Assembly (NCBI GenBank): GCA_944359625.1
Contig: CALVSW010000004.1
Location: forward strand, 30,000-93,999
DNA from: an uncultured Bacilli bacterium
GTDB taxonomy: Bacteria > Bacillota_I > Bacilli_A > RF39 > UBA660
Direction of reading: 5' to 3'
DNA length: 64,000 nucleotides
Part shown: positions 12,771 through 48,126 of the stretch, piece after piece
Layout of the letters: each line of letters begins with the position of its first letter
Numbering within the stretch: the stretch's first letter is position 1
Notes under the pieces: generated by a model
Databases searched by the model: none
What the model was told of the DNA's origin: nothing
What the model saw: the letters and a program-made list of their open reading frames with translations, nothing else
Program-made: the position numbers and the translations under genes

Positions 12771-12805
12771 AAAAGCCAGTTTAATTATCTAAACTAGCTT
12801 TTTTC
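12771..12805. terminator. Bidirectional rho-independent terminator between convergent genes
   Basis: AGCCAGTTTA-attatc-TAAACTAGCT (one mismatch) flanked by A-run upstream and T-run downstream. Confidence 0.5.
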
Positions 12806-19622: not shown

Positions 19623-20941
19623 GTAAAACCAAGTGATTCTATTTCATAATTTAGAACATCTTTACTAGTATCCTTTTTATAATAAAATGGATCTTCAGTA
19701 GTTAAATCAACATCAGTCGTATAATTAATATTAGCTGTATAAGTAAAACCAGTATCAATCGCAAGAACACTAGCAGTTGCTACATCACTTTCATCAATTT
19801 TCATAGCCTTAGCTTGATAATTTAGGAAATTAACTGTATAGCTATTATCATCAACACGTGTATAATTATAAACATCTTTAATATTAACTAATTTATTATC
19901 TTGAAATGTATAAGTTAGTGTACGATTAGGAGCTTCACATGTAATTACGGTTCCTAATTCTGAAATTGGATAATCAGATACGCTTCTATTTATTACTTGA
20001 AAGGAATTTGCATTATTATAAACAGTTTCATTAATTGGGCTTTGTAATGTAGTATTAGCACCACCACCTAAATTATCAATGTTAATTAATGCCCGACCTA
20101 AATAAGTATTATCTTGATAAAAATCTATATAAATACGATTAGTAGCAAAATCAAAGCTATTTTGAATATCAGTATTTTTAAGTGTGTAATTAAAATAATA
20201 GATATTATCAGCTAATGTTTTAGAAACATTACTAATTTCTAAATTTTCATATTTAGCAATAATAGTAGGATCTATTAAATATGTTTGAATAACTGGTTCT
20301 TCATCCACTGGTTCTTCATCTTCAGAATCATCTGGTTGTGGTGGTGTTGGTATTTCTTCAAAAACATCTGAATTATCACTAATATGTAATTTATCTAATA
20401 AATCACTAAAATATGGTGTTATTTCAGGAACAAAAAAGATTGTACCGATTAAAACTGTAAATAAAATTAACATAGCAACAGGACTTTTTTGTTTATCTTT
20501 CTTAATTGTTCCAATACTTTTACTTTCTAAAATAGAAACTTCTGGAGTAGATGGTGGAACACTTTGTTGTTGGGAATTTGCTACCTGCTGTTGATTTACA
20601 CTATTTTGATTTACTGCTTGGCCAGCTTGTATTGTAGATTGGGTTGAAGCAGCCATTCCATTACTTAAAGTATTATGTTCATTTAATTGCTTATTAACAT
20701 CTATTTGATTAAAAAAAGTATTATGAGCTCCCTCTTGTTGTGTACTTTTTAAAGTAGGTATATCAGGTTGCTCTAAAACTTGCTTTTTTTCTTCACCAAG
20801 ATTACCAACTATTTTAGGTGTATCTAAGGCCTCAATTGGTTTATTATTTTCTTCTTGAACTTCTTGCTTTTCTTTTGGTGTCTCTATTTTACGACCCCAT
20901 ATATCTGTATTTATATTATCACTAGGATTATTGTTATTCAT
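19613..20941 (-). CDS. Membrane-anchored hypothetical protein (442 aa)
   Basis: Q/N-rich N-terminal region, single TM (VAMLILFTVLIGTIFFV) and a large extracytoplasmic domain. Confidence 0.45.
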   Translation of the reverse strand: MNNNNPSDNINTDIWGRKIETPKEKQEVQEENNKPIEALDTPKIVGNLGEEKKQVLEQPDIPTLKSTQQEGAHNTFFNQIDVNKQLNEHNTLSNGMAASTQSTIQAGQAVNQNSVNQQQVANSQQQSVPPSTPEVSILESKSIGTIKKDKQKSPVAMLILFTVLIGTIFFVPEITPYFSDLLDKLHISDNSDVFEEIPTPPQPDDSEDEEPVDEEPVIQTYLIDPTIIAKYENLEISNVSKTLADNIYYFNYTLKNTDIQNSFDFATNRIYIDFYQDNTYLGRALINIDNLGGGANTTLQSPINETVYNNANSFQVINRSVSDYPISELGTVITCEAPNRTLTYTFQDNKLVNIKDVYNYTRVDDNSYTVNFLNYQAKAMKIDESDVATASVLAIDTGFTYTANINYTTDVDLTTEDPFYYKKDTSKDVLNYEIESLGFTCH

Positions 20942-27995: not shown

Positions 27996-28988
27996 TTACC
28001 TCGTTAATCCTAATACTTTCTTAAAATCTTTAGTATCTTCATTATTATTTTTTAAATACTGTTTTAAAAAATATACTTTATCTAAATTAGTATTAAATAT
28101 TAAATCACAAAATTCTAAAGCATTATCTAGATGAATCATATTATAATTAGAAAAATATAAATAATTTTTAGTATTTATTCTTCTTCTATTTAAAATTATA
28201 TCATAATTAAATCTATCACTTGTAACATAATATAACATTTTCATAAATAAATTAATATTATTTTGCCATATTACAGGGTTAAGAGTACCATTAGGATTAC
28301 GAAATTCAATCGTATTATTAAATCTATATACTCCTAATAAAGAACATTTTTCAAAACTAACAGCATTATTATCCATCTTTCTTAATTCATTAAATACTTG
28401 AAGAAAAGTACTTTCTTTTCTAACACTTAATAAATTATAATATTCATTAAAATCAAAATTGCATTGTAAGGCATAATCATTAATACCACTACGGGTTATT
28501 GAATATTCACCGTTACAAAACCTATAAATAACATCTTCATATGTTGCCCATAGCAATAAAAAACGGGAAAATATTTCCCAATTATTTGGCAATATTTGAG
28601 CCCCAACATGAACATGGGCGGCACATTTATCATTTATACTGCTATAATTTTTTAAAATATTACATACTCTTTTAATAGCTAACCAAGAATCTTTGTCATC
28701 TGATAATGCAGGAGAAGTAAATTCTAGTCCATCATCTAAACTAGAATCTTCTTTTTTGATCCACCCTTCATCTTCATAAATAGCAAATGCACTAAATATA
28801 TCATTATAATCGATAATATCTTCTGTTTCTATTTCGATTCCAAATGTATCTTTAGATTCTAAATTAAGAGTCTTGCGATATTCTAATAAATATAAATTTA
28901 AATAATATATAATTTCTTCTAAATCTTTTTTAGATAATTTAGAAAATAATAAATTTTCTTCTTTATTAATAAAATCAAATATTTCCAT
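27996..28988 (-). CDS. Hypothetical protein, possibly carboxylate-amine ligase/amidoligase-like
   Basis: Contains CAAHVHVG, reminiscent of GCS2/amidoligase metal-binding blocks. Weak assignment. Confidence 0.3.
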   Translation of the reverse strand: MEIFDFINKEENLLFSKLSKKDLEEIIYYLNLYLLEYRKTLNLESKDTFGIEIETEDIIDYNDIFSAFAIYEDEGWIKKEDSSLDDGLEFTSPALSDDKDSWLAIKRVCNILKNYSSINDKCAAHVHVGAQILPNNWEIFSRFLLLWATYEDVIYRFCNGEYSITRSGINDYALQCNFDFNEYYNLLSVRKESTFLQVFNELRKMDNNAVSFEKCSLLGVYRFNNTIEFRNPNGTLNPVIWQNNINLFMKMLYYVTSDRFNYDIILNRRRINTKNYLYFSNYNMIHLDNALEFCDLIFNTNLDKVYFLKQYLKNNNEDTKDFKKVLGLTR

Positions 28989-33523: not shown

Positions 33524-36082
33524 TTAATAGTCATCATCACCAAAGAAATCATCAAAGAATTCATCATCAGATATTATATTATTATTAACAACAACAGAAT
33601 CAACATCAACATTAATCTTTGGTTTATCTTCTTTTTTGCTTTCAATAACCAAATTATCATTCGTTACTGGAGTAGTCTTTATTTCTGTTTTTGGTACTTC
33701 ATCTAGAACTTCGACATCCTCTGCATCTTTTTCTGAAGATAAATCATTATAACTTGGAAGCTCATAGTTGGTATCAATAGATACTTTTATTGGTTCACTC
33801 TTATTTATTTCTGGTTTTATAAGCTTAGGATTTTCTTTTGGAGTAACCTCTTTTTCCTTTATAATTTCAGGAATCTCTTCAGTAATCTTAGGTTCTTCCT
33901 CTACCTTCTTTTGTTCTGGTTGCTCAATAGGAATTTCTTTTTCAATAGGTTTTATGTCTTCCTTAGGTTTAGAATCTAATTTAGATGTATCTAATTTCAT
34001 AGTCATACCTAAGTAATCATCGATATTTGGCTTTTTAACACTATCTTCTAAATTCTTTAAAGCAGCTTCCGTCATGGCTTTACTATCAGGAATTTTATTA
34101 TTTAAATTTTCTTTTTGACGAGCTTCTTCAGCATCTAATTCCGCAATTTTTTTATCAATATCACGCATCATCGCATCTAAATCTATTTTATTACTTCCGC
34201 CAAAAGGATTGGAAGTTTCTGGTTTAGTTGGTGTACTTTGAAATGGATTAGATGTTGCAAATGGATTATTTGATGCAAAAGGATTAAATGGCATATCAAA
34301 AGGATTACCACCAAAGCCTGGATTTGAACCGAAAGGACTATTTCCAAAATTAGCCATACTTTTTTCTTTCTTCTTTTCATTAACAAAACCTTTGATATCA
34401 AATAAAGCTACAGGTTTAGCAGCTCTTTGTGGAAAAGATGCATCGCTTGCTTGATAGCCCCAATCGACCTTATCATTGAAAGGTAACTTTGTTTTAAATG
34501 GACTCTTTCGAATACGCATTAATATCGCTTCACCAAACTTTAATTTTTGTAAATCTGTTACCGTTACTAAAGGTGTAGAAGCTGTTTTATCTTTTTCTTT
34601 AGATTTTACTTCACCACACATTTTACTAATTTCTTCTAAAGCAGCAAGTTCGGTAGATATTAAATAAATTGTATTACCACAGTTACCACGAATTACTTCC
34701 GCTACTTCTTTACCATAAACATCATTTAATTGGGCAAAGTTTTGAATAATAAATGTAAAGCGCATTTGTCTACTACGGGCAGCAGTTACCATTGAATCAA
34801 CATCTTTTAATGGTGGCATGTTAGCAAACTCATCTAAAATGAAGTTAGTTCTAATTGGTAATTTACCACCATTTTCTTGGGCAACATCAATTAGTGTTTC
34901 ATAACATTGTTTAATAAAAATAGTAGCTAATGCATGATAAGTAGTTTTTTCATCATGAACAACTATAAATACAGCAGTTTTTTCACGGCCAATATCTAAG
35001 ATACTAAAATCACTATGACCTAACATCTCTGATAAATTTTCACGAGATGCAAATAAACGTATTTTTTGTCTAAAAGTTGAAACTATACCACCTTTAGTAT
35101 CACTTGGAGCATTAATTGTTCCTGATGCAAAAGTGTAGGCACTTGAAGATTCACCTTTTAATAAGAAATATTCTTTAGCATAGTTAGAAGCTCCTAATCT
35201 TTCTTCACCAATCGTAGCCATTAAACTAATAGAATTAATATTTATTTCTTCTTCTTTAGCATCTTGAAATAGTCCTAAAGCTAAACCAGAAAAGTAATCA
35301 GCTGCAGATTTTTCCCAGAATGGTTCGCCCTTATTATTAGCATCATACAAAATATTTAAAGCAACATCATCTAATAATTCAGTAGCTTTATCCATATTTC
35401 CCATCTTGTAATATTGATATGGTAAGGTCAAAGGATTCCAAGCATTACCTTTTAATGGATCACGAAAATTTAAAATAATTACTTTGTAGCCTAATTCTTT
35501 TAATTTATTAGCAGCAGCAACATATAACTCACCCTTAGGGTCAGTTATAATCATAGATTCACCCTTTTTTGCTAACAAATTAACCATCGGTTTAACTACA
35601 CAACGTGATTTACCAGAACCAGAAGAACCAATTACTAAAGTATGATATTCACCATTATCAACCCACATTTCATTATTTTTACCTGTACATAAAGGAACAC
35701 CAGCAGCATTTAATGTTGCATCAGTAGTAATTACTTTAGCGACATCTCTATCAGTTTTAATATCTTTATCTTTAGCCCAACTAGAATAGCCTTTTTCTTC
35801 TTTTTCTTTAACTATAATACCTAATCCTTTTTTTTCTCTTTCAAAAACATAAGAAGATACAGAAGAGAAAATCATAATTAGTGCTAGAAAAAATAAAAGT
35901 AACGTTATTGGTAAATAAACACCTGAAAAAGCAGGAATAGGATTTAAACCCCATAATCTTCCTTCAGCACCAAAATTAATAAAATTTAAAACACTGATTG
36001 CACATAAATATAATAAAAATAAGCAAAATATCACAAATATAATTAAATCTTTAGAAGTTATTCTAAATTTCATTAACAACAC
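33524..36082 (-). CDS. Type IV secretion coupling protein (VirD4/TraG/TcpA/PcfC-like ATPase)
   Basis: N-terminal TM helices, Walker A VIGSSGSGKSR, Walker B FILDEFANMP. Long low-complexity acidic/proline C-terminal tail. Confidence 0.8.
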   Translation of the reverse strand: MLLMKFRITSKDLIIFVIFCLFLLYLCAISVLNFINFGAEGRLWGLNPIPAFSGVYLPITLLLFFLALIMIFSSVSSYVFEREKKGLGIIVKEKEEKGYSSWAKDKDIKTDRDVAKVITTDATLNAAGVPLCTGKNNEMWVDNGEYHTLVIGSSGSGKSRCVVKPMVNLLAKKGESMIITDPKGELYVAAANKLKELGYKVIILNFRDPLKGNAWNPLTLPYQYYKMGNMDKATELLDDVALNILYDANNKGEPFWEKSAADYFSGLALGLFQDAKEEEININSISLMATIGEERLGASNYAKEYFLLKGESSSAYTFASGTINAPSDTKGGIVSTFRQKIRLFASRENLSEMLGHSDFSILDIGREKTAVFIVVHDEKTTYHALATIFIKQCYETLIDVAQENGGKLPIRTNFILDEFANMPPLKDVDSMVTAARSRQMRFTFIIQNFAQLNDVYGKEVAEVIRGNCGNTIYLISTELAALEEISKMCGEVKSKEKDKTASTPLVTVTDLQKLKFGEAILMRIRKSPFKTKLPFNDKVDWGYQASDASFPQRAAKPVALFDIKGFVNEKKKEKSMANFGNSPFGSNPGFGGNPFDMPFNPFASNNPFATSNPFQSTPTKPETSNPFGGSNKIDLDAMMRDIDKKIAELDAEEARQKENLNNKIPDSKAMTEAALKNLEDSVKKPNIDDYLGMTMKLDTSKLDSKPKEDIKPIEKEIPIEQPEQKKVEEEPKITEEIPEIIKEKEVTPKENPKLIKPEINKSEPIKVSIDTNYELPSYNDLSSEKDAEDVEVLDEVPKTEIKTTPVTNDNLVIESKKEDKPKINVDVDSVVVNNNIISDDEFFDDFFGDDDY

Positions 36083-36124
36083 CCAATTTCTATATTACAT
36101 TATACAATAACAAATAAATAATAT

Positions 36125-36859
36125 CTATGTATTTTTATTCTTTTTTTTCAATATAAGAATCATTAAAATTATATAAACTAAAAATCCTACAATTATCAAA
36201 ATGATATTTATAATACTATTATTTTCTTCAGTATTTTGACTATCTGGAATATCTTCATTATCAGGATTTTCCTCTTCTTCTTTATTTTTAGCAAGGGAAA
36301 TAAAAATATTTTTATTTAAATAATTATCACGACTAAATAACCATGTATACTCATTATTATTTACTAAATCAGCATTACTATTCGTAACAGCTAAATCAGT
36401 TTTAATCGTAATAATAACACTAGTTAAATCAGGAGCTAAATCAAAGTATTTAAGACCTTTACTAGTCGAAATAATTATATTATCATTATTATCTAAAAAA
36501 CTTTTAGTATTATTAGCAAATAACCATGTTGGTGTATTATTTAATTTTTCTAATTGATTATTATTATTTAAACTATACATATAACCAGTATCATTTTGTA
36601 ATAATAAGTTTTTAGCATAACAATCTTCTAGTTTTTCACATATAAGATTATTTAACTCAGTTAGTTCAGTTATTTCACGAGGATAATATTCGTTATAAGT
36701 ATTAGCAATATCTGTTATATTTCTAGTAGTAGTAACAAAATCATTAACGATTACTTCCTCATCAAAACTATCTTCAGTAATCGTAATGTTATAGTTAACA
36801 GTACAACCACTCATTATTAAACTAAATAATAATATTAAAATTAATTTAATTTTGTTCAT
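36125..36859 (-). CDS. T4SS-associated lipoprotein with C-terminal TM anchor
   Basis: Probable start MNKIKLILILLFSLIMSGC (lipobox). Hydrophobic C-terminus IINIILIIVGFLVYIILMILIL. Lies between the hydrolase and coupling-protein genes. Confidence 0.5.
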   Translation of the reverse strand: MNKIKLILILLFSLIMSGCTVNYNITITEDSFDEEVIVNDFVTTTRNITDIANTYNEYYPREITELTELNNLICEKLEDCYAKNLLLQNDTGYMYSLNNNNQLEKLNNTPTWLFANNTKSFLDNNDNIIISTSKGLKYFDLAPDLTSVIITIKTDLAVTNSNADLVNNNEYTWLFSRDNYLNKNIFISLAKNKEEEENPDNEDIPDSQNTEENNSIINIILIIVGFLVYIILMILILKKKNKNT

Positions 36860-36864
36860 TTTTA

Positions 36865-39237
36865 TCACCCACACAATCCTGGTAAATATGTTAATGGATC
36901 TACTCGACTTCCATTTACAAACACTTCAAAATGCAAATGGTTTCCAGTAGCAGCACCAGTTTGACCTACATAACCGATTAAAGTGCCCGCAGTAACTGTA
37001 GAACCAATTTGTAAATCTGAAGGCTTTATCATATGAGCATAGAGAGTTTCAATCCCATTATTTCCAGCTATTCGAACATAATACCCATAACCATCAGAAT
37101 CATTACCATTTATCGTAACTGTACCATCATGTGCAGCATATATTGGTGTATTAGCTGGTCTAGCTATGTCGATGCCATTATGATTTTTTTGAACACCACT
37201 TATTGGATGAACACGATTGCCATACATCGAAGAACAATTACCCGTAGTTTCTAATGGATACATTAATCCATACGAATTAACTTCCCCATTTAAATTATAA
37301 TTCTTTAAACTTGAAGATAATACTGCATTATCATAATAGAAATTTAATATTTCATTATAAAGTTTTCCTTGTACGGTTGACATATAATAAGCACCATACT
37401 GACTCATTCCACGGCCATGACCACCATCACCATCAGTTCCACAAGGATGTTCTAAATACGATGTTCCACTCCATTTTGGAACATTTTCATAAGCCCAAGC
37501 AATTGGTATAGCTTGATGTTTTTGGGCTAAATAATAGTTAGTGCTATCTTTAGATTCATAGCAAAAAGCATCATATTCAGTTGAAACTAAATTACCGGCA
37601 CCATCAGTCATTATTTGACCAGTAGTTTGCGATACAGCATCAATAATTTGTTGATTAGTTGTTGGACGGAATGCTTGCGTATTAGTACTACTTGTAATAT
37701 AGCATACACCATCAGTATTTTGCGATCTTGTAAATAAATACGTACGTGCTGCTACAGAGAAAGCTTTAAAAGTTTCAGTATCTTGAAATCCTCCTACTTC
37801 ATGGCTAATAACACCAGCTACATAATCATCTAAAGTATAAGTTCCCATGTAATCACCAGATGTAACAGTAACATTATCACAGCCATTAACATCTACATAT
37901 GATAGTTCTGGAGAAGGCTGATACATATCACAAATTGGAAATATTTCAAATGGCTCTAATTCTAATTTTTCTACTTTAAATAATTTTTTAATAGTTTCAT
38001 CATAGTTAGTTCCCTGATTCAAAGCACTTAAGTCTAATTCTATTTTAGGAGCATAACCGATAATTATCTCACTTTTACCTAAAGATACAGCATTAGTAAT
38101 ATTATCTTGACTATCATCTGTTGATTCAGTATTATTTTCAGGAATATTTAATAAAGTATATTTATTGGTATCTTTTAATGTACAAGTACTTTCACCACTA
38201 TTAATAGACGAATTAATTAATAAATCAGAATTTACTACCACTCCTAAAGCATGATAATCTTCAGCATTACTAGTATATGAGCCAAAATAATAATTAACAG
38301 CACCTGCTAAATATTCATCAATTGTATAAGTACCTGCAGAGGGACCATCTGGTATAATAACGGTATTACAAGTAGGATTATTAACACAGTTAACATCAGC
38401 ATCTTCATTATAATCATAAATGTTATTTGAAACTATTCCAGATATTATAAAAATTATAATTAATAAAGCAAGTATTATTACTATAAATAACATAATAAAT
38501 GGGATTAAGGGAGCAATAACAGAAAGTGTTAACTTAAATGAAGTAGATCTTCCTAATAATATATTTTTTGTAAATTTTTTATTTTCATTTGTAGGTTCAT
38601 CATTATTATCAGATTTTTCTTTTTGAGATTCATTATTACTTTTAGAATTTTTATCTTTTAAAGGTTCTGAACTATCATCTTGTTTATCATCAAAACTTTC
38701 TTCTTCTGGTAAAGAATCTATAGTTTGATTAAACTTATTTTGTATATTTTTGCCATAATTCTTTATTTTATTTCTAGTTTTTCCTACCAAAGAAGCAGCT
38801 GTTCCTAACATTCCTAATTTGCTTTTAGGATTTAAAATGTTAGATAATTTTTCTTTATTTTCTTTTGTTTCTTCACTTACTTTTGGTGAACTATTTTTGC
38901 TTTCTTTTTCGTCTTCATTTACTTTTGGTATAGTGTCTTTATTTTCTTTTTCTAAAGATTTTTTTTGTGATTTATTAAGTGCTTTCCCACCATTTTCAAG
39001 CATTTTATCAACAGCTGGATTATCTAAAGTTTTTTTTACAGCCTGTCCTGCTGCAGCTCCAGCAGGTCCTCCAATTGCACCACCAATTACTGGAGCAGCA
39101 TTTTTTATTACTTTACGCCCAAGCTTTGATTGCAAACCTTTACTAGCTAAATTGCCAACCATATTTTTATTATAGGAAATCGGTTGCTTTGGATTTTGCT
39201 GAGGTTCTGTAGAAGAGTTCTTTTTTTCTTCGTCCAT
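36865..39237 (-). CDS. Bifunctional cell-wall hydrolase: SpoIID/LytB-like lytic transglycosylase domain plus C-terminal M23 (LytM) peptidase; functional VirB1 analogue
   Basis: GGHGRGMSQYGAYYMS is the SpoIID-family signature. C-terminus HNGIDIA...GNHLHFEV is the M23 HxxxD/HxH motif. Long charged cytoplasmic N-tail and one TM, as in PrgK/TcpG-type T4SS hydrolases. Confidence 0.75.
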   Translation of the reverse strand: MDEEKKNSSTEPQQNPKQPISYNKNMVGNLASKGLQSKLGRKVIKNAAPVIGGAIGGPAGAAAGQAVKKTLDNPAVDKMLENGGKALNKSQKKSLEKENKDTIPKVNEDEKESKNSSPKVSEETKENKEKLSNILNPKSKLGMLGTAASLVGKTRNKIKNYGKNIQNKFNQTIDSLPEEESFDDKQDDSSEPLKDKNSKSNNESQKEKSDNNDEPTNENKKFTKNILLGRSTSFKLTLSVIAPLIPFIMLFIVIILALLIIIFIISGIVSNNIYDYNEDADVNCVNNPTCNTVIIPDGPSAGTYTIDEYLAGAVNYYFGSYTSNAEDYHALGVVVNSDLLINSSINSGESTCTLKDTNKYTLLNIPENNTESTDDSQDNITNAVSLGKSEIIIGYAPKIELDLSALNQGTNYDETIKKLFKVEKLELEPFEIFPICDMYQPSPELSYVDVNGCDNVTVTSGDYMGTYTLDDYVAGVISHEVGGFQDTETFKAFSVAARTYLFTRSQNTDGVCYITSSTNTQAFRPTTNQQIIDAVSQTTGQIMTDGAGNLVSTEYDAFCYESKDSTNYYLAQKHQAIPIAWAYENVPKWSGTSYLEHPCGTDGDGGHGRGMSQYGAYYMSTVQGKLYNEILNFYYDNAVLSSSLKNYNLNGEVNSYGLMYPLETTGNCSSMYGNRVHPISGVQKNHNGIDIARPANTPIYAAHDGTVTINGNDSDGYGYYVRIAGNNGIETLYAHMIKPSDLQIGSTVTAGTLIGYVGQTGAATGNHLHFEVFVNGSRVDPLTYLPGLCG

Positions 39238-39283
39238 AAAAACACCACCATCACTATGTAAATTTTATCATAAAATAGTGGTT

Positions 39284-39312
39284 AAAAAAAGTCTAAACAT
39301 TAATTTAGACTT
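39284..39312 (-). terminator. Internal hairpin/terminator between the VirB4 and hydrolase genes
   Basis: Minus strand reads AAGTCTAAA-ttaatg-TTTAGACTT followed by TTTTTT. Confidence 0.45.
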
Positions 39313-39315
39313 ATT

Positions 39316-41103
39316 CTAAAATCCACCACCAGTTCCAAAAGAATCTAACTCTTCTTGAGTACATATTACATAAATTTGCATTCTTCTAGAACCACAAATA
39401 AATAATCCTTGGCCTTGATTATAATACTTAATATTATTCATTTCAGCTTCGGTTAAATCAATCAAACTTGACAAATCATCTACAGCTTGCTTTTTTAATC
39501 CCATTACCAAATAATAAGAGGCATTATCAAATATTGCTTTACCATGCATAATTAAATTTGGAGAAGCAAAGTCAGTAGGTTGTTGAGTAATAATAATTGT
39601 CCCACTATTATATTTACGAGATCTTCTTTGAATTTGAGCTAAAAATTCAGCACCTAATTCATTATGAGAGGATAATAAAACATGAGCTTCATCAACACTC
39701 AACACTGAAGTTACTGTTTTATCCAAACATAAACCCCAAGCATATTTTAAGATATTGAAAAATATTGCATTACGAATATTTTCATCGCTATTCATTAATT
39801 CACGAATATTAAAAACCACAAAATCACTTTGAATATTTAAAGTTGTATGACCATTAAAGTAATAACGAAGTTCCCTAGTAAATGGTCTAATTTTAAGTTC
39901 TAATCTTTCTAAAATATCTTTTTCCCTAGTTTTTTCAGGAATAGAAAGTAATCTACCTCTAATTGTAGCATATACATCATCAAATGTTGGATAATCTTGA
40001 CTAGTAAGGCGTGAAAAATCAGTATCATAATCTATTTTAAATCTTTTATAAGTATCTTGAGCAATTTCACTAAACATTGTTAAAACATCTTCTTCAATAT
40101 CTGGTGAATAATATTTCAAGAAAGCTTTTAAAGATTGTAAAGCTCTTGTTAAGACCGTATAACCTAATCCTTGAGCTAAATCTTCTTCATCAGCATCAGC
40201 AACGACTTCAAGGGGATTTATCATCCCAAATTCGCCACCTTTTCCTAAATCTAGAAAATCACCATCTAAAAATTTAGCCATTTCTTCGAGTTCACCTTCA
40301 GGATCAATAGCAATTACCTTATAACCATTACGAATATGAGATCTTAAAAGTAATTTGCTTGCTGTTGATTTACCACTACCAGATGTACCTAAAATTATCA
40401 TATTAGCATTGTTTCGATTATGTTCTTTTTTAATTTGATAAAGAAATTGATTAAATAAAACAACTCCACCAGAATAATCAACACCTAATAAAGTAGAATT
40501 TCCAATATCTTTAACACTATCAAATATAAATGGATACATAGCCGCAATTGTAGGAGAAGGAATTGGCGTACCAATTCTTTCTTCTAAATCTTGTTTAGGA
40601 AATATTGGTAAAATAGATTTTAAAACTTTTTCTTGTTCAAACATTAAAGGTATACCACGCATTCCCATAGCGTCTAAGAAACTCAAAAGATTAACTTTTT
40701 TACTTTCCAAATCTTCCTTAGAATCCGCAACTACCATCAAATGTAATTGAAAATCAAATATTCTTGATTGTGTTGCTGCTAACATCTGGACAAATTGTTC
40801 TAAAGATTCATAATCTTGTCTAATTCTTTCTTGAATAGTACGATCATTTTCATTTTGATATCTTTGTTTCAAATCAGCAATTTCTTTATTAATCATCTTA
40901 CTCATTGTACTAAATTCAATTGGAATATGCTTAGCAACTACTTTAACACCATTAATATTACTTAAATCTGATAAATAACCCGGAGATATATATTTAGGAT
41001 AACTTATAATCGTATAAATTGTACAATATTTACCACTCATAATAAAATCAGTAATATTATACTTCATTCCTTTAGGAGCTAATTCACTTTTTAAATTCAA
41101 CAT
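39316..41103 (-). CDS. VirB4-family T4SS ATPase (TcpF/PrgJ/Orf16-like)
   Basis: Walker A ILGTSGSGKST, Walker B SVDEAH, about 600 aa. This is the Gram-positive VirB4 architecture. Confidence 0.85.
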   Translation of the reverse strand: MLNLKSELAPKGMKYNITDFIMSGKYCTIYTIISYPKYISPGYLSDLSNINGVKVVAKHIPIEFSTMSKMINKEIADLKQRYQNENDRTIQERIRQDYESLEQFVQMLAATQSRIFDFQLHLMVVADSKEDLESKKVNLLSFLDAMGMRGIPLMFEQEKVLKSILPIFPKQDLEERIGTPIPSPTIAAMYPFIFDSVKDIGNSTLLGVDYSGGVVLFNQFLYQIKKEHNRNNANMIILGTSGSGKSTASKLLLRSHIRNGYKVIAIDPEGELEEMAKFLDGDFLDLGKGGEFGMINPLEVVADADEEDLAQGLGYTVLTRALQSLKAFLKYYSPDIEEDVLTMFSEIAQDTYKRFKIDYDTDFSRLTSQDYPTFDDVYATIRGRLLSIPEKTREKDILERLELKIRPFTRELRYYFNGHTTLNIQSDFVVFNIRELMNSDENIRNAIFFNILKYAWGLCLDKTVTSVLSVDEAHVLLSSHNELGAEFLAQIQRRSRKYNSGTIIITQQPTDFASPNLIMHGKAIFDNASYYLVMGLKKQAVDDLSSLIDLTEAEMNNIKYYNQGQGLFICGSRRMQIYVICTQEELDSFGTGGGF

Positions 41104-41675
41104 TAAATCATCACCGTCCCAAAATTAGTACTAACGCCACCATTTAAGAAATTATCTAATATCATTCTTAAATCACCATTAGAGACTTGCATTGAATTTA
41201 ATCCACAATTTGCTAAGCCCGTAATTAATATTCTCAATCTTTTTTGAATTATATCGATTCTTTTTTCTTTAAAAAGGATAAAGTATTCGGTATCAACAAC
41301 ATTGTACTCAGCACCCATAAAAGCATTTGCTTTATTAATATCTTGCATTATTAATTTGCGAGTAATATTACTATTTGATTTTTGATATAAAACTTGTAAT
41401 TGCGCTAAATAAGGAGCAATATCTACTGGGCGATCCGCTATTATTAGCCAAAATTCAAAATCAATAGTATTATAAAAATTTCGTAATTGAGTAATAATAT
41501 TATTTTGAGAACCAGTGTCCATTATGAATATATTGCGTGGCTGAATTTTTACACCACAAACAAAATTACCATCCTCTAACTGAATCATCCCATTAACAAT
41601 ATTTTTAACAGGTAACCAGTCCTCACAATACTTATAATTATTTTCATTCTTCTCTATCTTTGCCGTAGACATCTT
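41103..41675 (-). CDS. Hypothetical T4SS operon protein (~190 aa)
   Basis: ORF between the VirB3-like and VirB4 genes. Likely start at internal Met (MSTAKIEKNEN); the longer ORF-track version overlaps the upstream gene by 76 nt. Confidence 0.4.
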   Translation of the reverse strand, partial: KMSTAKIEKNENNYKYCEDWLPVKNIVNGMIQLEDGNFVCGVKIQPRNIFIMDTGSQNNIITQLRNFYNTIDFEFWLIIADRPVDIAPYLAQLQVLYQKSNSNITRKLIMQDINKANAFMGAEYNVVDTEYFILFKEKRIDIIQKRLRILITGLANCGLNSMQVSNGDLRMILDNFLNGGVSTNFGTVMI

Positions 41676-41973
41676 TAACACACCAGCCTTTCCAAATATA
41701 TTCTCTAGGATTTTTTGCACTATAATAATTTAATACGTTACCAATAAATGTCATAACATTATGATAATTAGGTACTGGCATTACTAAAAATAATGAAATT
41801 AATAAAGGTAAACATAATAAAATTATTTGATTAATATTATTAGCATTAATCATTATTAATAATAAAAGGGTAACACCTGCACCAGTACCAAATACAGCCA
41901 AATCAATTGGAGTAAAAAAGCCAAATATTAACTTAGACTTTTTACTATTTGCCGGGATTAAAAAGTTTCGCAT
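41644..41973 (-). CDS. VirB3/TcpE/PrgI-like small two-TM T4SS protein
   Basis: 109 aa, two hydrophobic helices, immediately upstream of VirB4, which is the canonical position. Confidence 0.55.
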   Translation of the reverse strand: MRNFLIPANSKKSKLIFGFFTPIDLAVFGTGAGVTLLLLIMINANNINQIILLCLPLLISLFLVMPVPNYHNVMTFIGNVLNYYSAKNPREYIWKGWCVKDVYGKDREE

Positions 41974-41988
41974 AAACTCCTCCTTATT

Positions 41989-44181
41989 CTACTTTTTATT
42001 AGCATCTTTTTTAACTTGTTCAAAACGTAATGATGTTGCCATCTTACCAGCACTAGAGCTAATTTTCTTCGCAGCAGTGCTAACTACATCTGATCCATCA
42101 AAGCCTTGACCATTTTCAATCATTTTAACCAAACTATCAATTCCTTTATCGCTAACAAGATCTTCTATTTGAGCAAAATCACTACCACTCATAGTTTTTT
42201 GTAAAGCATAGGCAACTAAACTACGATTTGCCGCAATTGACTGAGCATAATTTTCTAAATTATGTTTCATTGCTACATCACCTTTAGCAACAAGATCTTT
42301 AATTACTTCAGCACGTTTTGCAGATTTTCTAGAATCCCATTCTTTTTGTAAATTTTTAATTCTATCTTGCTTAGCATCAATAGTATTTTTACTCATTTGA
42401 TCTAACTCAAGTTTTAATTTATTTTCTTCATCTAATAATGGATTTAAACGAGCAGCTTTTTCAGAATCACTCATTGTTACGGAATTACGAATATTATCCA
42501 TTTGAGATTGTAAATTTTTCAATTTGCTATTCGCATTATTAATATCATCTTGTGAATAAGTACGAGATTCTTTAATTCTAGATATTTCGCCTTCATAAGT
42601 AGCATTTAACGCTTTTATGCCATCGTTTTTATCAGCAGCATCATTAATAGCATCCATATATTTTTTTATCTTATCCAATATATCAGCCTTAGCATTTTGA
42701 CTACTCTTCCCAGATCCATGTGCCCATTCATCAATTGAAGTTCCAATATCGCCAACATGACCTTTAACTACACCAGACAAATTACCGCCATGAGTATTAC
42801 GATAGTATTCTCTTTTAATTCTTGCTGAAGCAACATCGTTTGCTGCTCTACTAGTATTACTTGCTAAATCGTGATAATTTTTAGAGCCTTTATTAGCGGT
42901 AAAACCACGAGCTAAACCACTTCCAGCACCTGCTAAAGCACTTAAACCTTTAGAAAATTTGCTTCCTTCTTTATTAAGTGCATTTTGAACAGCTCCGGTA
43001 GTAGCAGCACCCATTGCACCCATTGCTTGAAACATTCCAGATTCAGCAAGTTTGTCTTTAACGCCTAATTTAAACCCTTTACTATCTAAACCTGTAACTT
43101 CTGATACAAATTTTGGTGCTGTTTTAATAAACCAGAATAAACCAACTATTGTAGCAGCTTTAACTAATAGAAAAACAACTCCACCAATTTCACCACAATA
43201 TACACCACCAGTGCCAAAGAAAGTATCATAGACACTATCAAGGGTACGCATAATGTAAGCAACGAATACTACAACAAATAAACGCGTAAATACTTCAATA
43301 AAACAGCTAATTGTCTTTTTTAGCCAATTAGAAAATACTTTCTTTTGACCTGGAATAATTATCGTTAAAATTGGTAATGGCGCTATTACTTGTAGGTACG
43401 ATAGTTTAACTGCTCGTAAAGCCATATCTAAACATAATGAAGCTAAAACATAAACACAAAATCCTCCAGCAATTGTCGATATTATAAATACATACCCAAT
43501 TTCTTCATCTACTACTGCATCTGAAAATTTTCTTAAAGCAGAAAATGGAGCACCAGCCTCAATTTCAGCATAAGCTTGTTCTAAAGTCTTACAATCTGCA
43601 CCATCACAATCATTTTCATATATGTGAGAAGCAGCACCTCCAGTTTGCGAAATATCAACAGGTTCACCGTTTTCGTCAAGAGGATAGAAAAATGATTTAA
43701 AAAGCAAAGTTGCCATTTGAGCACCAATTTGATTTGGTTCCTCACTATTAACATCAAAGCCGTCGCTATACGAATTTCCTAATATCAACTTAGGAATAAC
43801 ATTACCGCACAAAATAGCATGTTGGACATCGTACATTACATTAAAAGCAGATGGAACAATCGCAATACCAATAATTGCTAATGCAATATTTGGTACAACC
43901 TTACCTAAAGAATGCTCTTTATTATTACTATCAGGATTAATTATAGCTAATAATAAAGCATAAGCAACTAAAAATAATGCAACTACGCCAATTATAATAT
44001 AAATTCTTTGAGATAAGTCATTTAAATCTTGATTACTAAATATTCTAATTTGACTTATAGCTAAAAAAGTTTGATATGCTAAATTCACTAACCAATAAAC
44101 AAATGTATCTATAAATAAAAATATATGTGTCAATACTCTTTCAATTAAATCACCTATTGGTCCTAATATTGCCTGGGCCAT
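41989..44181 (-). CDS. VirB6/TrbL-like polytopic T4SS channel protein with C-terminal coiled-coil/low-complexity extension
   Basis: Six or more TM helices in the N-terminal 400 aa, then a long hydrophilic coiled-coil region. Position relative to VirB3/VirB4 matches PrgH/TcpH/Orf15. Confidence 0.6.
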   Translation of the reverse strand: MAQAILGPIGDLIERVLTHIFLFIDTFVYWLVNLAYQTFLAISQIRIFSNQDLNDLSQRIYIIIGVVALFLVAYALLLAIINPDSNNKEHSLGKVVPNIALAIIGIAIVPSAFNVMYDVQHAILCGNVIPKLILGNSYSDGFDVNSEEPNQIGAQMATLLFKSFFYPLDENGEPVDISQTGGAASHIYENDCDGADCKTLEQAYAEIEAGAPFSALRKFSDAVVDEEIGYVFIISTIAGGFCVYVLASLCLDMALRAVKLSYLQVIAPLPILTIIIPGQKKVFSNWLKKTISCFIEVFTRLFVVVFVAYIMRTLDSVYDTFFGTGGVYCGEIGGVVFLLVKAATIVGLFWFIKTAPKFVSEVTGLDSKGFKLGVKDKLAESGMFQAMGAMGAATTGAVQNALNKEGSKFSKGLSALAGAGSGLARGFTANKGSKNYHDLASNTSRAANDVASARIKREYYRNTHGGNLSGVVKGHVGDIGTSIDEWAHGSGKSSQNAKADILDKIKKYMDAINDAADKNDGIKALNATYEGEISRIKESRTYSQDDINNANSKLKNLQSQMDNIRNSVTMSDSEKAARLNPLLDEENKLKLELDQMSKNTIDAKQDRIKNLQKEWDSRKSAKRAEVIKDLVAKGDVAMKHNLENYAQSIAANRSLVAYALQKTMSGSDFAQIEDLVSDKGIDSLVKMIENGQGFDGSDVVSTAAKKISSSAGKMATSLRFEQVKKDANKK

Positions 44182-44192
44182 GACTATCCCTC

Positions 44193-45107
44193 CTAACTAA
44201 TACCACATACTCCATAAATTCCAACTAGTTTAAAAGTCCAATCTAGCAAACTTGGTATAATAAATAACATTATTGCATAAATTAACCTTTTTAAAGTTTT
44301 AACTCCTAATTTAGTTAATTCATCATTTTTACCATTTGCTAATACTTTTATTAAATCAACAATTGTCATCACAACAACTAAAATTGGCCCTGCAAACTTA
44401 ATTATTTCCAATAATTTAGCTAAATAATAGCCTAGATATTCTGGGTCATCATAGTCACCTAAAACGTAGTCACATGTTAATGAGCCATTATTATTAGACG
44501 AATTATTACTTTCATCATCGCCAGCCTCGTTCCACCAGTAATCCTTATCTTCTGTTGTTACATGGACAATTTTTGTACCATTACCAGCGCCAACTGTAAC
44601 ATTTGCAGAACAATTTGGTGCTATCGCATGAAGCGTACAAGAATAAGTACCAGCAATTGAAGAAGCCGTAGAAGAATTTGCTGAAACACAACTTGGATTA
44701 TCAGAAACACATGTTGCTGAACCACTTTGATAAGAAGTACTATCTTCTAATTTCATAGTAATATCAATTTCTTCTGAAGGAGTAACAGGTTCTGCTTGAC
44801 TAGGATCACCAACTGTAACGTTAATAACCCTTGAACTTGTACCACCACCAATTGTTACCGTAGAATTACAATTATCACCAATAGCAACAAAAGTGCAATG
44901 ATAAAGTCCAGATTGATTCGTATAACTTTCACTAGCAGAAACACACATAGGGTTAGAAGATTTACAACCAGATAAATTAGAATTAATAATGTGGTTCTGT
45001 CCTTTAGACATTGTCATTTCTTCTGCATACGTCAAATAGTGACAAGAAAAAATGGCTACAAAAATAAATAAAAAAGAAAAGATAACATGTTTAATATTCT
45101 TTTTCAT
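44193..45107 (-). CDS. Secreted Cys-rich two-repeat ectodomain fused to a VirB2/TrbC-like C-terminal membrane hairpin
   Basis: Signal peptide (MKKNIKHVIFSFLFIFVAIFS). Two ~60-aa Cys-rich repeats (...NPMCVSASESYTNQSGLYHCT... / ...NPSCVSANSSTASSIAGTYSCT...). C-terminal FAGPILVVVMTIVDLIKVLANGK...IYAIMLFIIPSLL hairpin resembles TrbC/VirB2 pilins. Confidence 0.5.
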   Translation of the reverse strand: MKKNIKHVIFSFLFIFVAIFSCHYLTYAEEMTMSKGQNHIINSNLSGCKSSNPMCVSASESYTNQSGLYHCTFVAIGDNCNSTVTIGGGTSSRVINVTVGDPSQAEPVTPSEEIDITMKLEDSTSYQSGSATCVSDNPSCVSANSSTASSIAGTYSCTLHAIAPNCSANVTVGAGNGTKIVHVTTEDKDYWWNEAGDDESNNSSNNNGSLTCDYVLGDYDDPEYLGYYLAKLLEIIKFAGPILVVVMTIVDLIKVLANGKNDELTKLGVKTLKRLIYAIMLFIIPSLLDWTFKLVGIYGVCGIS

Positions 45108-45168
45108 TAAGCCACCTCTAACAAAAAAATTATAACATAAAAAAAGTAATATTTGCAAAAAATATTAC

Positions 45169-45495
45169 CTATAAATACAAATATGACTTACAGTCAATCC
45201 ATCCTCTAGCATTAGTATCACCAGTTTCAGCAACGGTCTCCATAATTAAGCCAACGATAGATGGAATAAAGAATATCAATACAGCAGCAAGCGCACGGAA
45301 AGCAAAACTTTTAATATTTTTAGTAATTTCTTCTGGTTTTCCAGCTACAACACTTTTACCAACATCTAACATACCAAATAAAATTAATAAAATAGGAATA
45401 ATAATTTTAACAGCCGTTATAAGCATTCCTAACAAATTTAAAAATGGCTTTAACTCACCACATACAGTAGCTGGTGATAAACTCATTAATAACAT
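45169..45495 (-). CDS. VirB2/TrbC-like pilin-family small membrane protein
   Basis: Helix, loop and helix arrangement ITAVKIIIPILLILFGMLDVGKSVVAGKPEE ... AAVLIFFIPSIVGLI, as in Firmicute TrbC/VirB2-family proteins. Confidence 0.45.
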   Translation of the reverse strand: MLLMSLSPATVCGELKPFLNLLGMLITAVKIIIPILLILFGMLDVGKSVVAGKPEEITKNIKSFAFRALAAVLIFFIPSIVGLIMETVAETGDTNARGWIDCKSYLYL

Positions 45496-45558: not shown

Positions 45559-46614
45559 TTACTCATCCTTTACAATGCCAAATATCTTTCCTACAGGTTT
45601 TTTGATACCACCAACCGGTTCTTGACGATCAAAACCCAACTTATATAATAAATCATTTAAAATTGGATTTTGATCTTTTTTGTCATCTAAAGGTGGAATA
45701 GATTCAAACACTTTACAACGAGATTCATATTCAAATTCAGAAACATCCTTAGAACTTAATAAACATTTATTTAAAACTATCTTATATTTTTTCATCTTAG
45801 TTAATACCGTACGATCAGTTCTAATTAATTTATTTAATTTAATAGTAGTTGGTTCAATTAAATGAATCACTTCTTTTATAGAAGCAACTTTAGGAGAAGA
45901 ATTAATGTCAACTAATATTATTTCATAATTACTATTAGGATTTTTAATAATTGAATCAACCTCACCAGTTGAGCAAGTACGTAAATCAGGATCATTAAAA
46001 TAAACAAAATCATTTTTATCGACTTCTAGGGCTAAAACTTTATAATTTCTTTCTAATTGTTTTTTTAACATATAAACCAAGGTAGTAGCCCCAGCATGCT
46101 CCGTAACATTTTTAAAAGCTATAACTCGAGAACCCATAAACACTTTATTAATTGAATCATTAAAAAAGTTAGAATTTACATTACCAACGTTTAAATTAAT
46201 ATTTAAATTATTTTGATTATTAGTACCATTATCGCCAATAATATGATATTGAGCTACATCTTTATAAGTATTAGGATTATTAATTAAGTATTCAATTGAA
46301 TCAATATTACGTGTAAAATTATATATTCCCATCGATACTAATCCAGATAAATAACTAGGTGAATTAACCTCAGGCGAATCATCTAAAAGAACAATAACTT
46401 TATTCATATCAAGTCCTGAGGCTAATTTTTGAATTGTAGCAATATTTTTATAACCGATAACAGCCGTAATATCTAAAATCATTTTATTAAAAAAGAAGTT
46501 TTCAAAATTAGCAATTATTACTTCCGGCTCATATTCACCACGAACATTTTTAATTATATCGATATTTAAATTAGTTAACATTTCACTATATCGATTAGAA
46601 ATTATAACATTCAT
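45559..46614 (-). CDS. ParA/MinD-fold protein with degenerate Walker A (TadZ/CpaE-like pseudo-ATPase?) and N-terminal receiver-like domain
   Basis: RVIAFKNVTEHAGATTLVYML occupies the deviant Walker A position (consensus KGGVGKTT) but lacks the Lys. Overall size and architecture resemble TadZ. Confidence 0.4.
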   Translation of the reverse strand: MNVIISNRYSEMLTNLNIDIIKNVRGEYEPEVIIANFENFFFNKMILDITAVIGYKNIATIQKLASGLDMNKVIVLLDDSPEVNSPSYLSGLVSMGIYNFTRNIDSIEYLINNPNTYKDVAQYHIIGDNGTNNQNNLNINLNVGNVNSNFFNDSINKVFMGSRVIAFKNVTEHAGATTLVYMLKKQLERNYKVLALEVDKNDFVYFNDPDLRTCSTGEVDSIIKNPNSNYEIILVDINSSPKVASIKEVIHLIEPTTIKLNKLIRTDRTVLTKMKKYKIVLNKCLLSSKDVSEFEYESRCKVFESIPPLDDKKDQNPILNDLLYKLGFDRQEPVGGIKKPVGKIFGIVKDE

Positions 46615-46626
46615 ATATCCGTCCTC

Positions 46627-47127
46627 CTAAACACCAAATAAGTCTTGGTCATATGTTGCGTCTAATTCAGTTGTACTTCCTGTTGCTCTAAAGGTAAATA
46701 ATTGCCCTAATACAGGTAAATCTAAATTAAAAAACAAAACAACATTATAATAACTTTTAACTTTAGTACCTGTAAAAGTTACTTTTTGAACACAATAATA
46801 ATATTTCTTATTATTATTGTTATCAACATATTCAAAAGCACTTGGAGTAAAATCATCTAAGCGTACTGCCCCATAATAGCCTGCAGTACATGCACCTTTT
46901 GAATGATATCCAGAAGCTAATAAATAATTATTAACTATACCTATCCCTTTTAAACCACCACTAGTTAATCCCTCATATTTTTCAATTATACTTACTACTT
47001 CATTTTTAGACTTAAAAGCCTTAGCATAATTAGTCATAATAGCTAAGTAGGAAGCAAATATTAGAATAAATGCAATTACTAGTTGAAATATCCAAGTCGT
47101 ACCTATTGTTTCTCTCATACTGAACAA
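46627..47127 (-). CDS. Prepilin/pseudopilin-like protein (166 aa) with conserved [KR]E[AST]xG N-terminus
   Basis: MFSMRETIGTTWIFQLVIAFILIFASYLAI: charged leader, Gly, then about 20 hydrophobic residues. Paralogue of 47115-47591. Confidence 0.45.
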   Translation of the reverse strand: MFSMRETIGTTWIFQLVIAFILIFASYLAIMTNYAKAFKSKNEVVSIIEKYEGLTSGGLKGIGIVNNYLLASGYHSKGACTAGYYGAVRLDDFTPSAFEYVDNNNNKKYYYCVQKVTFTGTKVKSYYNVVLFFNLDLPVLGQLFTFRATGSTTELDATYDQDLFGV

Positions 47128-47591
47128 CTCCCCCCATTAACAGGATAATAAAGAGTTTTAGTCGTTCCACTTAAACTAAAATTAAATACATTATTTATAA
47201 TTGGTAAGTCTAAAGAGAAAAAGACTTTAACCTTATAATAACTAGCATTAGGAAATTGTTTATAAGGATCATTTAAATTAACATTTATATTTACACATTT
47301 AATACAATAATTAGCTTTAGTTTGACTACGACCACCAGATAAAGTATATCCTATACCATCTTCTTCATCACAGCTTCCTAATGAACGATAACTAACTTCA
47401 TTTAAATGCCCTGCTATTTCATCTATTGTAGAACCATCAACACCATTATGTCTTTGAATAATATTTACTAATTCATTTTTTACGTTATAAGCCTTAGTTT
47501 GATTAACTGAAATACATAAATAACCAGAAAAAAGAATTATTAAAGTAACAAATATCGTAGTTATACTTAATGCTCCAAACGACTCTTTCAT
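47115..47591 (-). CDS. Prepilin/pseudopilin-like protein (158 aa) with conserved [KR]E[AST]xG N-terminus
   Basis: MKESFGALSITTIFVTLIILFSGYLCI: same architecture as the neighbouring paralogue. Confidence 0.45.
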   Translation of the reverse strand: MKESFGALSITTIFVTLIILFSGYLCISVNQTKAYNVKNELVNIIQRHNGVDGSTIDEIAGHLNEVSYRSLGSCDEEDGIGYTLSGGRSQTKANYCIKCVNINVNLNDPYKQFPNASYYKVKVFFSLDLPIINNVFNFSLSGTTKTLYYPVNGGSCSV

Positions 47592-47597
47592 ACTATA

Positions 47598-47831
47598 CTA
47601 ACCTTTCCACGGACACATAATAGTATCATTATTATCCCCATAGTGACAAACAACCATCTTGCATCCACTTGAATCTGTACACTTTTCACACCAAGCATCA
47701 CTACACTTACTATTTTGATCCATATTCTTTTTTAGCATTGGCCAAATAACCATGTAGAAAAAAGCCACTAGGATACTAACAGCTATAACAACAATAACAG
47801 TCGAATTTAATTCCCCAGTAGCTTCTTTCAT
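47598..47831 (-). CDS. Small Cys-rich pilin-like protein (77 aa)
   Basis: MKEATGELNSTVIVVIAVSILVAFFYMVIWP followed by a 6-Cys C-terminal domain. N-terminus near-identical to the 83-aa paralogue. Confidence 0.5.
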   Translation of the reverse strand: MKEATGELNSTVIVVIAVSILVAFFYMVIWPMLKKNMDQNSKCSDAWCEKCTDSSGCKMVVCHYGDNNDTIMCPWKG

Positions 47832-47874
47832 CTTTTATCTTCTTTCTATATAATTATATCTTTTTTCTATATAA

Positions 47875-48126
47875 TTACTTGTTGCTTACTCCACTTTGAT
47901 TTGGGCAAGTTATTTTTTCAGTTGAAATAGTTCCATCGTCTTCATAGTAACTACATTGACATGTATCACCATCACATGTGCAATTAACTGAATTAGCACA
48001 TCTAGTACTTTGCTGAATACTTCCTTGAATTGCTGGCCATACAAAAGCATAGAAGAATGCACCAATAGCAGCAATAGCAACTACTGTAACTACAGTCATA
48101 TTTAATTCACCTGTTGCTTCTTTCAT
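47875..48126 (-). CDS. Small Cys-rich pilin-like protein (83 aa)
   Basis: MKEATGELNMTVVTVVAIAAIGAFFYAFVWP followed by a 6-Cys C-terminal domain. Confidence 0.5.
   Translation of the reverse strand: MKEATGELNMTVVTVVAIAAIGAFFYAFVWPAIQGSIQQSTRCANSVNCTCDGDTCQCSYYEDDGTISTEKITCPNQSGVSNK

Follow-up and report, generated by a model that had tools for sequence, protein, structure and literature searches.

A pilin-like gene module beside a type IV secretion cluster in uncultured gut Bacilli: a candidate divergent Tad-like pilus

Four consecutive genes, here named P1 to P4, were analysed in a 64-kb window of DNA from an uncultured Bacilli bacterium (Bacilli_A; RF39; UBA660; contig CALVSW010000004.1, positions 30,000–93,999). 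The window is the whole stretch studied, and coordinates refer to it unless a related locus (L plus a number) is named. Together with a fifth gene, p351, predicted to encode a TadZ/CpaE-like protein, P1–P4 form a module that is kept in more than 50 related loci of uncultured gut Bacilli and that lies, in the window, directly before the genes of a type IV secretion system (T4SS). We consider it probable that P1–P4 are filament subunits of an undescribed and very divergent Tad-like (type IVc-like) pilus of small-genome gut Bacilli. The evidence that they behave as pilins and minor pilins comes chiefly from gene context, namely synteny with a Tad-like motor in relatives, and also from their conserved N-terminal helices, variable ectodomains, even Cys numbers, the predicted structure of P3 and the occurrence of adhesin-type fusions.

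Results

P1–P4 are the first four genes of an uninterrupted same-strand string with short gaps that continues into the T4SS genes (Table 1); a preliminary description, made from the sequence alone, had placed them inside the T4SS operon, which is incorrect. In all four products the start M[KR]E[AST]xG leads into a hydrophobic stretch of some 21 residues; the N-termini quoted in that description are correct to the letter, and each protein has a single transmembrane (TM) helix. The four make up two pairs of paralogs, P1 with P2 (40% identity, E 1e-18) and P3 with P4 (28% identity, E 4e-20). The six-Cys C-terminal modules reported for the two small proteins are real, six Cys being present in P1 and six in P2, an even number in both. 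Lengths of 83, 77, 158 and 166 amino acids (aa) had been given, of which the first three stand; the fourth counts from a TTG codon, whereas the MRETIG start of P4 is the ATG at 47118, which is preceded by a ribosome-binding site (GGGGGGAG) and gives 163 aa.

The N-terminal pattern is not a product of chance, because a regular expression describing it (M[KR][EDQ..]..[GSAN] followed by at least 14 hydrophobic residues), applied to every Met-started open reading frame (ORF) of the window, matched P1–P4 only, and the orthologous genes were matched in every related locus. The GC content of the window is 14–33%, and in such AT-rich sequence a promoter and terminator scan did no better than chance. 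By direct reading, outside the scoring of that scan, a TATAAT with a weak −35 element was noted 5′ of P1, where an unrelated metallophosphoesterase is encoded. Two genes upstream of P1, the gene at 48934–50079 encodes a single-TM protein that has a ..GFTC[SH] tail in common with the otherwise unrelated single-TM protein encoded at 19613–20941 (BLASTP E 0.04, last 19 residues).

Conservation is concentrated in the N-terminal helix. Over 48 unique P1 orthologues the first 32 aa have a mean identity of 84%, against 33% for the remainder; the corresponding values are 65 and 37% for P2, 51 and 36% for P3, and 53 and 38% for P4. A conserved hydrophobic helix of about 21 residues, as in type IV pilins, is thus found in all four. 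The number of small genes varies by tandem duplication, from one to three per locus. A HMMER scan of 1.84 billion representative sequences with a P3/P4 profile returned 1276 clusters (50% identity) at E ≤ 1e-3, and the start M[RK]E[AS]IGGTWLFQIVIVFILLF was the consensus in nearly all of the best 150 of these. A few family members are 400–570 aa long and carry C-terminal Flg_new repeats, SH3 or M15 domains. For ten sampled members the cluster name was 'hypothetical protein' only. The AlphaFold2 model of P3 places a 45-residue N-terminal helix (residues 4–48) on a β-sheet; a Foldseek search with this model against the PDB gave no significant match, and the predicted fold points weakly to pilins.

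The fifth gene of the module, p351, was assigned from predicted structure, which gave the informative signal; sequence searches returned no match. The model (pLDDT 71) comprises a receiver-like N-domain and a ParA/MinD-like C-domain. By alignment, the Walker A motif is degenerate (NVTEHAGATT), and the protein ends in a basic amphipathic tail. These features agree with the TadZ/CpaE architecture as given in PMC13170226, and we regard p351 as a predicted TadZ/CpaE-like ParA/MinD pseudo-ATPase, which would supply the TadZ/CpaE component of a Tad system. Its homologues number more than 5700, all without names. The protein encoded after p351, in T4SS-linked and Tad-only loci alike, is a small one of 108 aa (pilin108) that matches PF18895 with E 4.3e-5; its 23.9 bits fall short of the gathering score (26.6).

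Related loci were drawn from a GTDB sample baited with P3 (21 species), from further look-ups baited with p351 and with TadA, and from a metagenome scan with the ATPase (80 loci); the P3-baited sample is less biased than the TadA-baited one. Its hosts are listed as uncultured gut Bacilli, 'Coprobacillus sp. CAG:605', 'Mycoplasma sp. CAG:956' and 'uncultured Tenericutes'. The order P1, P2, P3, P4, p351, pilin108 is constant across the P3-baited loci, and in 17 of the 21 species VirB6, TcpE-like, TraC-like and VirB4 genes follow. VirB4 is 88–90% and p351 about 77% identical across the T4SS-linked species of this sample. Four species (L027–L030) have a different arrangement, in which the module is preceded by genes for a surface protein of 1160 aa, DUF5411, two proteins of the RcpC/CpaB type, a T2SSE ATPase and two polytopic membrane proteins and is followed by uvrA, with no T4SS. 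Co-occurrence of the module with VirB4, which the preliminary description had suggested looking for, therefore holds for the 17 species and breaks down in these four and in L031/L032, where the module stands alone. Three distant loci have one small and one large gene only.

Single clusters containing both a motor half and a T4SS half were retrieved with the p351 and TadA baits (L033–L036). After dereplication of the module-holding loci at 95% p351 identity, 11 lineages had motor, module and T4SS, with 51–111 bp between the TadC-position gene and P1. Two lineages had motor and module only, five (counting those with sufficient flank) module and T4SS only, and one the module alone. Many intact motor-only loci without pilin genes were also returned by the ATPase scan (e.g. 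L062, L079, L085 and L110). As a unit, the module can be linked in cis with a Tad-like motor, with a T4SS, with both of these or with neither.

Where the arrangement is most complete, the motor side runs from a large surface protein through DUF5411, CpaB, the TadA/CpaF-type ATPase and two polytopic membrane proteins to P1; after P1–P4 come the TadZ-like protein, VirB2-like small proteins, VirB6, VirB3, TrsD, VirB4, hydrolase and VirD4. The ATPase of the relatives matches PF00437 (T2SSE, 101 bits) and is named TadA or CpaF/VirB11 by NCBI. Their CpaB matches RcpC (PF16976, 31.4 bits; gathering score 28.8) and TIGR03177 (E 1.4e-10), so that the SAF-domain component is found in relatives only; the window has no CpaB/RcpC. 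After the ATPase, at the TadB/TadC position, come the two conserved polytopic proteins (about 297 and 262 aa). DUF5411 proteins begin MKESYWGYW and continue with a TM helix, the same N-terminal signature as in P1–P4, and on the strength of this start DUF5411 may be a fifth pilin-like family of the system. Because hhalign of the P3/P4 profile with DUF5411 aligned the first 24 residues only (probability 35%), a common signature is seen and homology is not demonstrated.

Other neighbours recur beside these clusters. More than 30 loci have a gene for a CPBP (Rce1-like) intramembrane protease beside the cluster, in many cases accompanied by a thioredoxin/PedC-like gene, and both genes stand beside the lone module of L031. 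The protease could serve as an alternative maturation enzyme for the N-termini, and the PedC-like thioredoxin could form disulfides in the Cys-rich pilin tips; no orthologue of either was found in the window. A Metallophos gene is conserved beside Tad-like clusters too and also adjoins the module of L031. The window metallophosphoesterase (48200–48943) was considered as its orthologue and was rejected on comparison.

The T4SS of the window comprises VirB4, VirD4, a SpoIID+M23 hydrolase, a TraC-like protein and sub-threshold VirB6 and TcpE, as in MPF-FATA-type systems. Pfam and NCBIfam searches revealed no recognisable VirB8 in it, and a search of the 64 kb, which was not exhaustive, yielded neither a relaxase nor an integrase. 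It is chromosomal and flanked by housekeeping genes (mutL, miaA, murF, ddl, spoVA, scpAB and sufSU). The 321-aa Cys-rich surface protein (Table 1) contains two Cys-rich repeats (..C.S.NP.CVSA..) and is fast evolving, with 91% identity in L002 and 65% in L010, where its neighbours are 96–100% identical (VirB4 97–100%).

Table 1. Location of the pilin-like module, the T4SS genes and selected features of related loci
Feature	Position	Strand	Length	Description
P1	47875–48126	−	83 aa	Flp-sized pilin candidate; gene 1 of string; MKEATGELN, TM helix, variable 6-Cys C-terminus
P2	47598–47831	−	77 aa	P1 paralog; 6-Cys C-terminus with conserved ..C[PV]WKG end
P3	47115–47591	−	158 aa	Minor-pilin candidate, TadE/TadF-sized
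P4	46627–47118	−	163 aa from ATG 47118 (166 aa from TTG 47127)	P3 paralog
p351	45559–46614	−	351 aa	TadZ/CpaE-like (predicted); always fifth gene of module
VirB2-like two-TM protein (pilin108)	45169–45495	−	108 aa	PF18895 T4SS_pilin, sub-threshold
Cys-rich surface protein	44193–45158	−	321 aa	pilin108-like C-terminal segment; weak PF18895 match
T4SS genes overall	33524–44181	−		
VirB6-like	41989–44181	−		Sub-threshold matches to Mycoplasma integrative and conjugative element (ICE) conjugal-transfer families
TcpE/VirB3-like	41644–41973	−		Sub-threshold match
TraC-like/TrsD	41103–41720	−		
VirB4	39316–41103	−		P-loop_TraG, E 6e-15
SpoIID+M23 hydrolase	36865–39237	−		
Lipoprotein	36125–36874	−		
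VirD4	33524–36082	−		E 1e-52
DUF5411 genes	L028 4238–4942; L035 8621–9133; L036 8624–9139			
Metallophos + CPBP region	L031 11069–13024; L035 164–2271; L036 135–2235			

Further features were noted elsewhere in the window. Tandem paralogs of 884 and 909 aa (56751–59405 and 59486–62215) are 45% identical over their full length and belong to no Pfam family. A 1008-aa Asn/Ile/Lys-rich ORF without a Pfam match (9722–12748) lies in the part of lowest GC content (13.7% at 10–12 kb). The 521-aa protein encoded at 8149–9714 has a sortase domain at its C-terminus only (residues 355–519, TLSTC), and the N-terminal 350 residues before its TM segment are unannotated. An Amidoligase_2 (PF12224) protein is encoded between miaA and mutL (27996–28988).

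Discussion

As a Tad-like pilus, the system has parts that map one to one onto those of Tad/Flp (type IVc) pili, including the tad locus of the monoderm Bifidobacterium breve and the TadZ of E. rectale (PDB 3FKQ). P1/P2 correspond to Flp, P3/P4 (about 160 aa) to TadE/TadF, and p351 to TadZ/CpaE with its receiver and ParA/MinD domains and deviant Walker A; in relatives only, CpaB/RcpC, a CpaF/TadA-type T2SSE ATPase and the two polytopic proteins at the TadB/TadC position are added to the correspondence. The system differs from Tad/Flp pili in having no Flp_Fap or TadE match, no G/XXXXEY motif, a putative leader of 5–6 residues, no clustered TadV/A24 peptidase and no T2SSF signal at the TadB/TadC position. 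DUF5411 and CPBP genes as conserved neighbours, and a window without motor genes, also set it apart.

P1 and P2 would be major pilins of Flp size, each with a conserved membrane/core helix and a variable, probably disulfide-bonded tip, and P3 and P4 would be minor pilins of TadE/TadF size. The four genes and the TadZ-like gene are inherited as one five-gene unit, and the full cluster can be read as pilus genes joined head-to-tail to a relaxase-less MPF-FATA-type T4SS. In the mechanism we propose, the subunits would insert N-in/C-out, and the platform and T2SSE ATPase would pull them from the membrane and polymerise them via their conserved N-terminal helices. The TadZ-like protein may position the machine. 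The pilus could then make or retract cell contacts for use by the adjacent T4SS, as IncI thin pili do.

Most probably, the motor genes of the window's system lie at another place in the genome. We infer this, rather than a new partner, from the existence of motor-only and module-only loci and from the near-identity of the P1 N-terminus, in which 2 of 31 positions differ between the window and motor-adjacent loci such as L116, implying the same partner machinery. Motor-only loci need pilins from elsewhere, as module-only loci need a motor, and so complement module-only loci like the window.

A number of observations weigh against a Tad-like pilus, beginning with the sequences of P1–P4 themselves, which showed no similarity to Flp, TadE, N_methyl or other pilin families in Pfam, NCBIfam or the PDB. 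At E ≤ 1 none of the four matched any Pfam or NCBIfam family; for P2 the Pfam matches were sub-threshold only and all confined to the TM segment. Models for prepilin-type cleavage and methylation (N_methyl) gave no match in P1–P4, 45 members of the P3/P4 family gave no N_methyl or TadE match at E ≤ 0.01 in Pfam or NCBIfam, and phmmer and hmmsearch comparisons with the PDB, using single sequences and 12- and 45-member profiles, returned nothing meaningful. TadE_N (PF07811) likewise failed to match P3, P4 or the 45 family members, so the agreement with TadE is limited to size and gene position. VirB2/TrbC-type pilin models (PF04956 and PF18895) did not match P1–P4, which have no two-TM hairpin, and no NTF2-like ectodomain of the VirB8/PrgL/TcpC type was found in them.

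The N-termini depart from the class-III rules as well. A class-III leader is short and positively charged with Gly at −1; the putative leader of P1–P4 is net neutral and 5–6 residues long, and about one-sixth of the best 150 P3/P4 clusters have S, A, N or R in place of Gly6. The absence of Glu at +5 after the Gly had been pointed out for all four proteins and was borne out, no acidic residue occurring at +5 in P1–P4 or in the family consensus. P1 and P2 carry instead an invariant Glu/Asp at +1, directly after the Gly, and read G-ELN[MS]TV, which fits neither the Flp/Fap G/XXXXEY motif nor the PF04964 model. The class-III architecture proposed in the preliminary description is retained in the conserved helix; the missing +5 Glu, the short neutral leader, the variable Gly and the lack of any Pfam or NCBIfam pilin match do not fit it. 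An A24 prepilin peptidase was found neither in the window nor in 119 loci by a rough GxD[VIFAL]K motif and precomputed Pfam labels, and the N-termini may be either uncleaved or cut by some other protease.

The motor raises further difficulties. No T2SSE ATPase, the ATPase expected of a Tad system, occurs in the 64 kb; the earlier statement that the operon has neither a prepilin peptidase nor a TadA/PilB ATPase therefore extends to the whole window, with the reservation that a Tad-like component, p351, is present. In the relatives, the proteins at the TadB/TadC position gave no T2SSF (PF00482), NCBIfam or PDB signal. The motor cluster adjoins sufSU in seven motor-only relatives (L076, L088, L091, L094, L095, L107 and L109), with sufS-sufU after the TadC-position gene, directly in most and about 6 kb on in L076. 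The window sufU/sufS (12794–14416) is 69–73% identical to these at the nucleotide level and has other genes there: sufS is flanked on that side by an ABC transporter and a Fic gene, suggesting that the motor cluster has been rearranged or lost at this site. Exact-protein look-ups for sequence beyond the two window ends yielded short contigs only. A blastn comparison of motor-only loci with window-type contigs detected orthologous housekeeping genes only (64–74% nucleotide identity) and no same-genome link. Finally, TadA-baited loci over-represent motor-adjacent arrangements.

Three other explanations were weighed. It is doubtful, though worth weighing, that P1–P4 are bitopic parts of an envelope machine, similar to PilN/PilO/GspM or VirB8, in which an uncleaved, conserved N-terminal peptide on the cytoplasmic side (MKEATGE/MRExIG) docks onto the TadZ-like protein. 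Such a role would suit the departures from the class-III rules (no +5 Glu, a short neutral leader, a variable Gly), the lack of a prepilin peptidase in any locus, the weak pilin fold signal and a T4SS without recognisable VirB8, and p351 travels with P1–P4, not with the ATPase. Machine parts are harder to reconcile with P1 and P2, which are tiny and have fast-evolving Cys-rich tips, and with tandem duplications and adhesin-type fusions, which suit exposed subunits better. P1 is moreover promoter-proximal, as major pilin genes often are. The Cys-rich tips could alternatively mean that P1 and P2 are exported bacteriocin-like or signal-like peptides, matured by the CPBP protease and PedC-like protein whose genes recur beside more than 30 of the clusters, with P3 and P4 as unrelated membrane proteins. 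Small size and 4–6 Cys are in keeping with this. It is nevertheless highly improbable: the best-conserved part of P1/P2 is the hydrophobic helix and not the Cys-rich part, there is no double-glycine leader, all five families including DUF5411 have the same N-terminal signature, the gene order with the TadZ-like and ATPase genes is fixed, and the window has no CPBP or PedC-like gene.

The preliminary description had envisaged a pilin set coupled to a VirB4-powered machine, as a novelty. In its present form this would mean that window-type genomes have lost the Tad motor and that VirB4/VirB6 assemble or use the pilin-like set and its TadZ-like partner, as a filament or conduit of a monoderm T4SS. 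The genes do run on without a break along one strand, separated by short gaps, and the module lies directly before the T4SS in 17 of the 21 P3-baited species, with no T2SSE ATPase within 10 kb upstream where the flank suffices and none in the window. Very strong conservation of VirB4 and p351 among these species, the sufSU site that bears a motor in seven relatives and none in the window, and a chimeric T4P-VirB4/VirD4 model (T4P, type IV pilus) proposed for PAPI-1 (PMC12857230) also speak for it. We still think it unlikely. VirB4 is not an obligatory partner, because there are loci in which the module accompanies a Tad-type motor but no T4SS, or stands by itself; motor-only loci need pilins encoded elsewhere; and the near-identical P1 N-terminus points to one assembly partner for loci with an adjacent motor and for those without. 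To our knowledge there is no case of VirB4 polymerising single-TM pilins. A hybrid is not required by the data, and the combination of a T4P with a T4SS is known in diderms.

Two such diderm cases resemble the present cluster in that a type-IV-filament gene set adjoins a VirB4/VirD4 system. In IncI (R64) a T4P thin pilus aids a Dot/Icm-like T4SS, and in PAPI-1 a type IVb pilus is combined with VirB4/VirD4 (PMC12857230). The IncI and PAPI-1 sets work with their secretion systems, as the set described here would. Both are Gram-negative mobile elements with canonical type IVb prepilins, PilD-type peptidases and relaxases; the cluster described here has a monoderm host, is chromosomal and relaxase-less, and would specify a Tad-like pilus type with non-canonical pilins.

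The secretion half has its closest parallel in the chromosomal, relaxase-less T4SS of Patescibacteria (candidate phyla radiation, CPR), which has TrsD, arrays of PF18895 pilins and M23 hydrolases (PMC12102498). The two have in common TrsD/TraC-like, VirB4, VirB6 and VirB3-like proteins, PF18895-type small proteins, an M23-type hydrolase, the lack of a relaxase and a place on the chromosome of a small genome. According to the same source, VirB2 is lacking from the T4SS classes of Gram-positive bacteria. T4P matter for the CPR way of life as well; their genes are canonical there and no fusion to the T4SS cluster is reported. VirD4 is usually distant in Patescibacteria and lies within the cluster in the window, and no P1–P4-like proteins are described for them.

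The motor half recalls operons of gut Clostridia with CpaF, PilC/GspF, DUF5411 and internalin-like proteins, flagged as an uncharacterised T4P- or type II secretion system (T2SS)-like system (Miller et al. 2022, PMC9523054). There as here, a T2SSE ATPase, DUF5411 and a very large surface protein occur in one gut-Firmicutes operon whose remaining genes are unannotated; the likeness rests on DUF5411 and the ATPase. No pilin candidates or T4SS link were reported for those operons, to which the Bacilli clusters add P1–P4, the TadZ-like module and, mostly, a full T4SS. In the literature covered, by a limited search, there is no description of P1–P4-like proteins or, for monoderms, of a Tad-like pilus cluster joined head-to-tail to a T4SS that is relaxase-less and Patescibacteria-like.

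Should the VirB4/VirB6/VirD4 machine have taken over the pilin-like module after all, contrary to our expectation, we would have here the first case of a monoderm T4SS constructing or using a filament that resembles type IV pili. The Tad-like and T4SS supercluster might then, no more probably, form one contact-dependent transfer organelle serving a host-dependent lifestyle, in parallel to Patescibacteria. For the Tad-like pilus that we favour, a testable role is now available for three unannotated families: P1/P2, P3/P4 (1276 clusters) and the TadZ-like proteins (more than 5700). Pilin-finding pipelines miss this system because it has no +5 Glu, a leader of 5–6 residues and no clustered A24 peptidase. 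It is widespread in uncultured gut Bacilli with genomes of about 1–1.5 Mb. Their motor-only, module-only and module-plus-T4SS loci provide a natural comparative test of part-sharing between type IV filaments and T4SSs.

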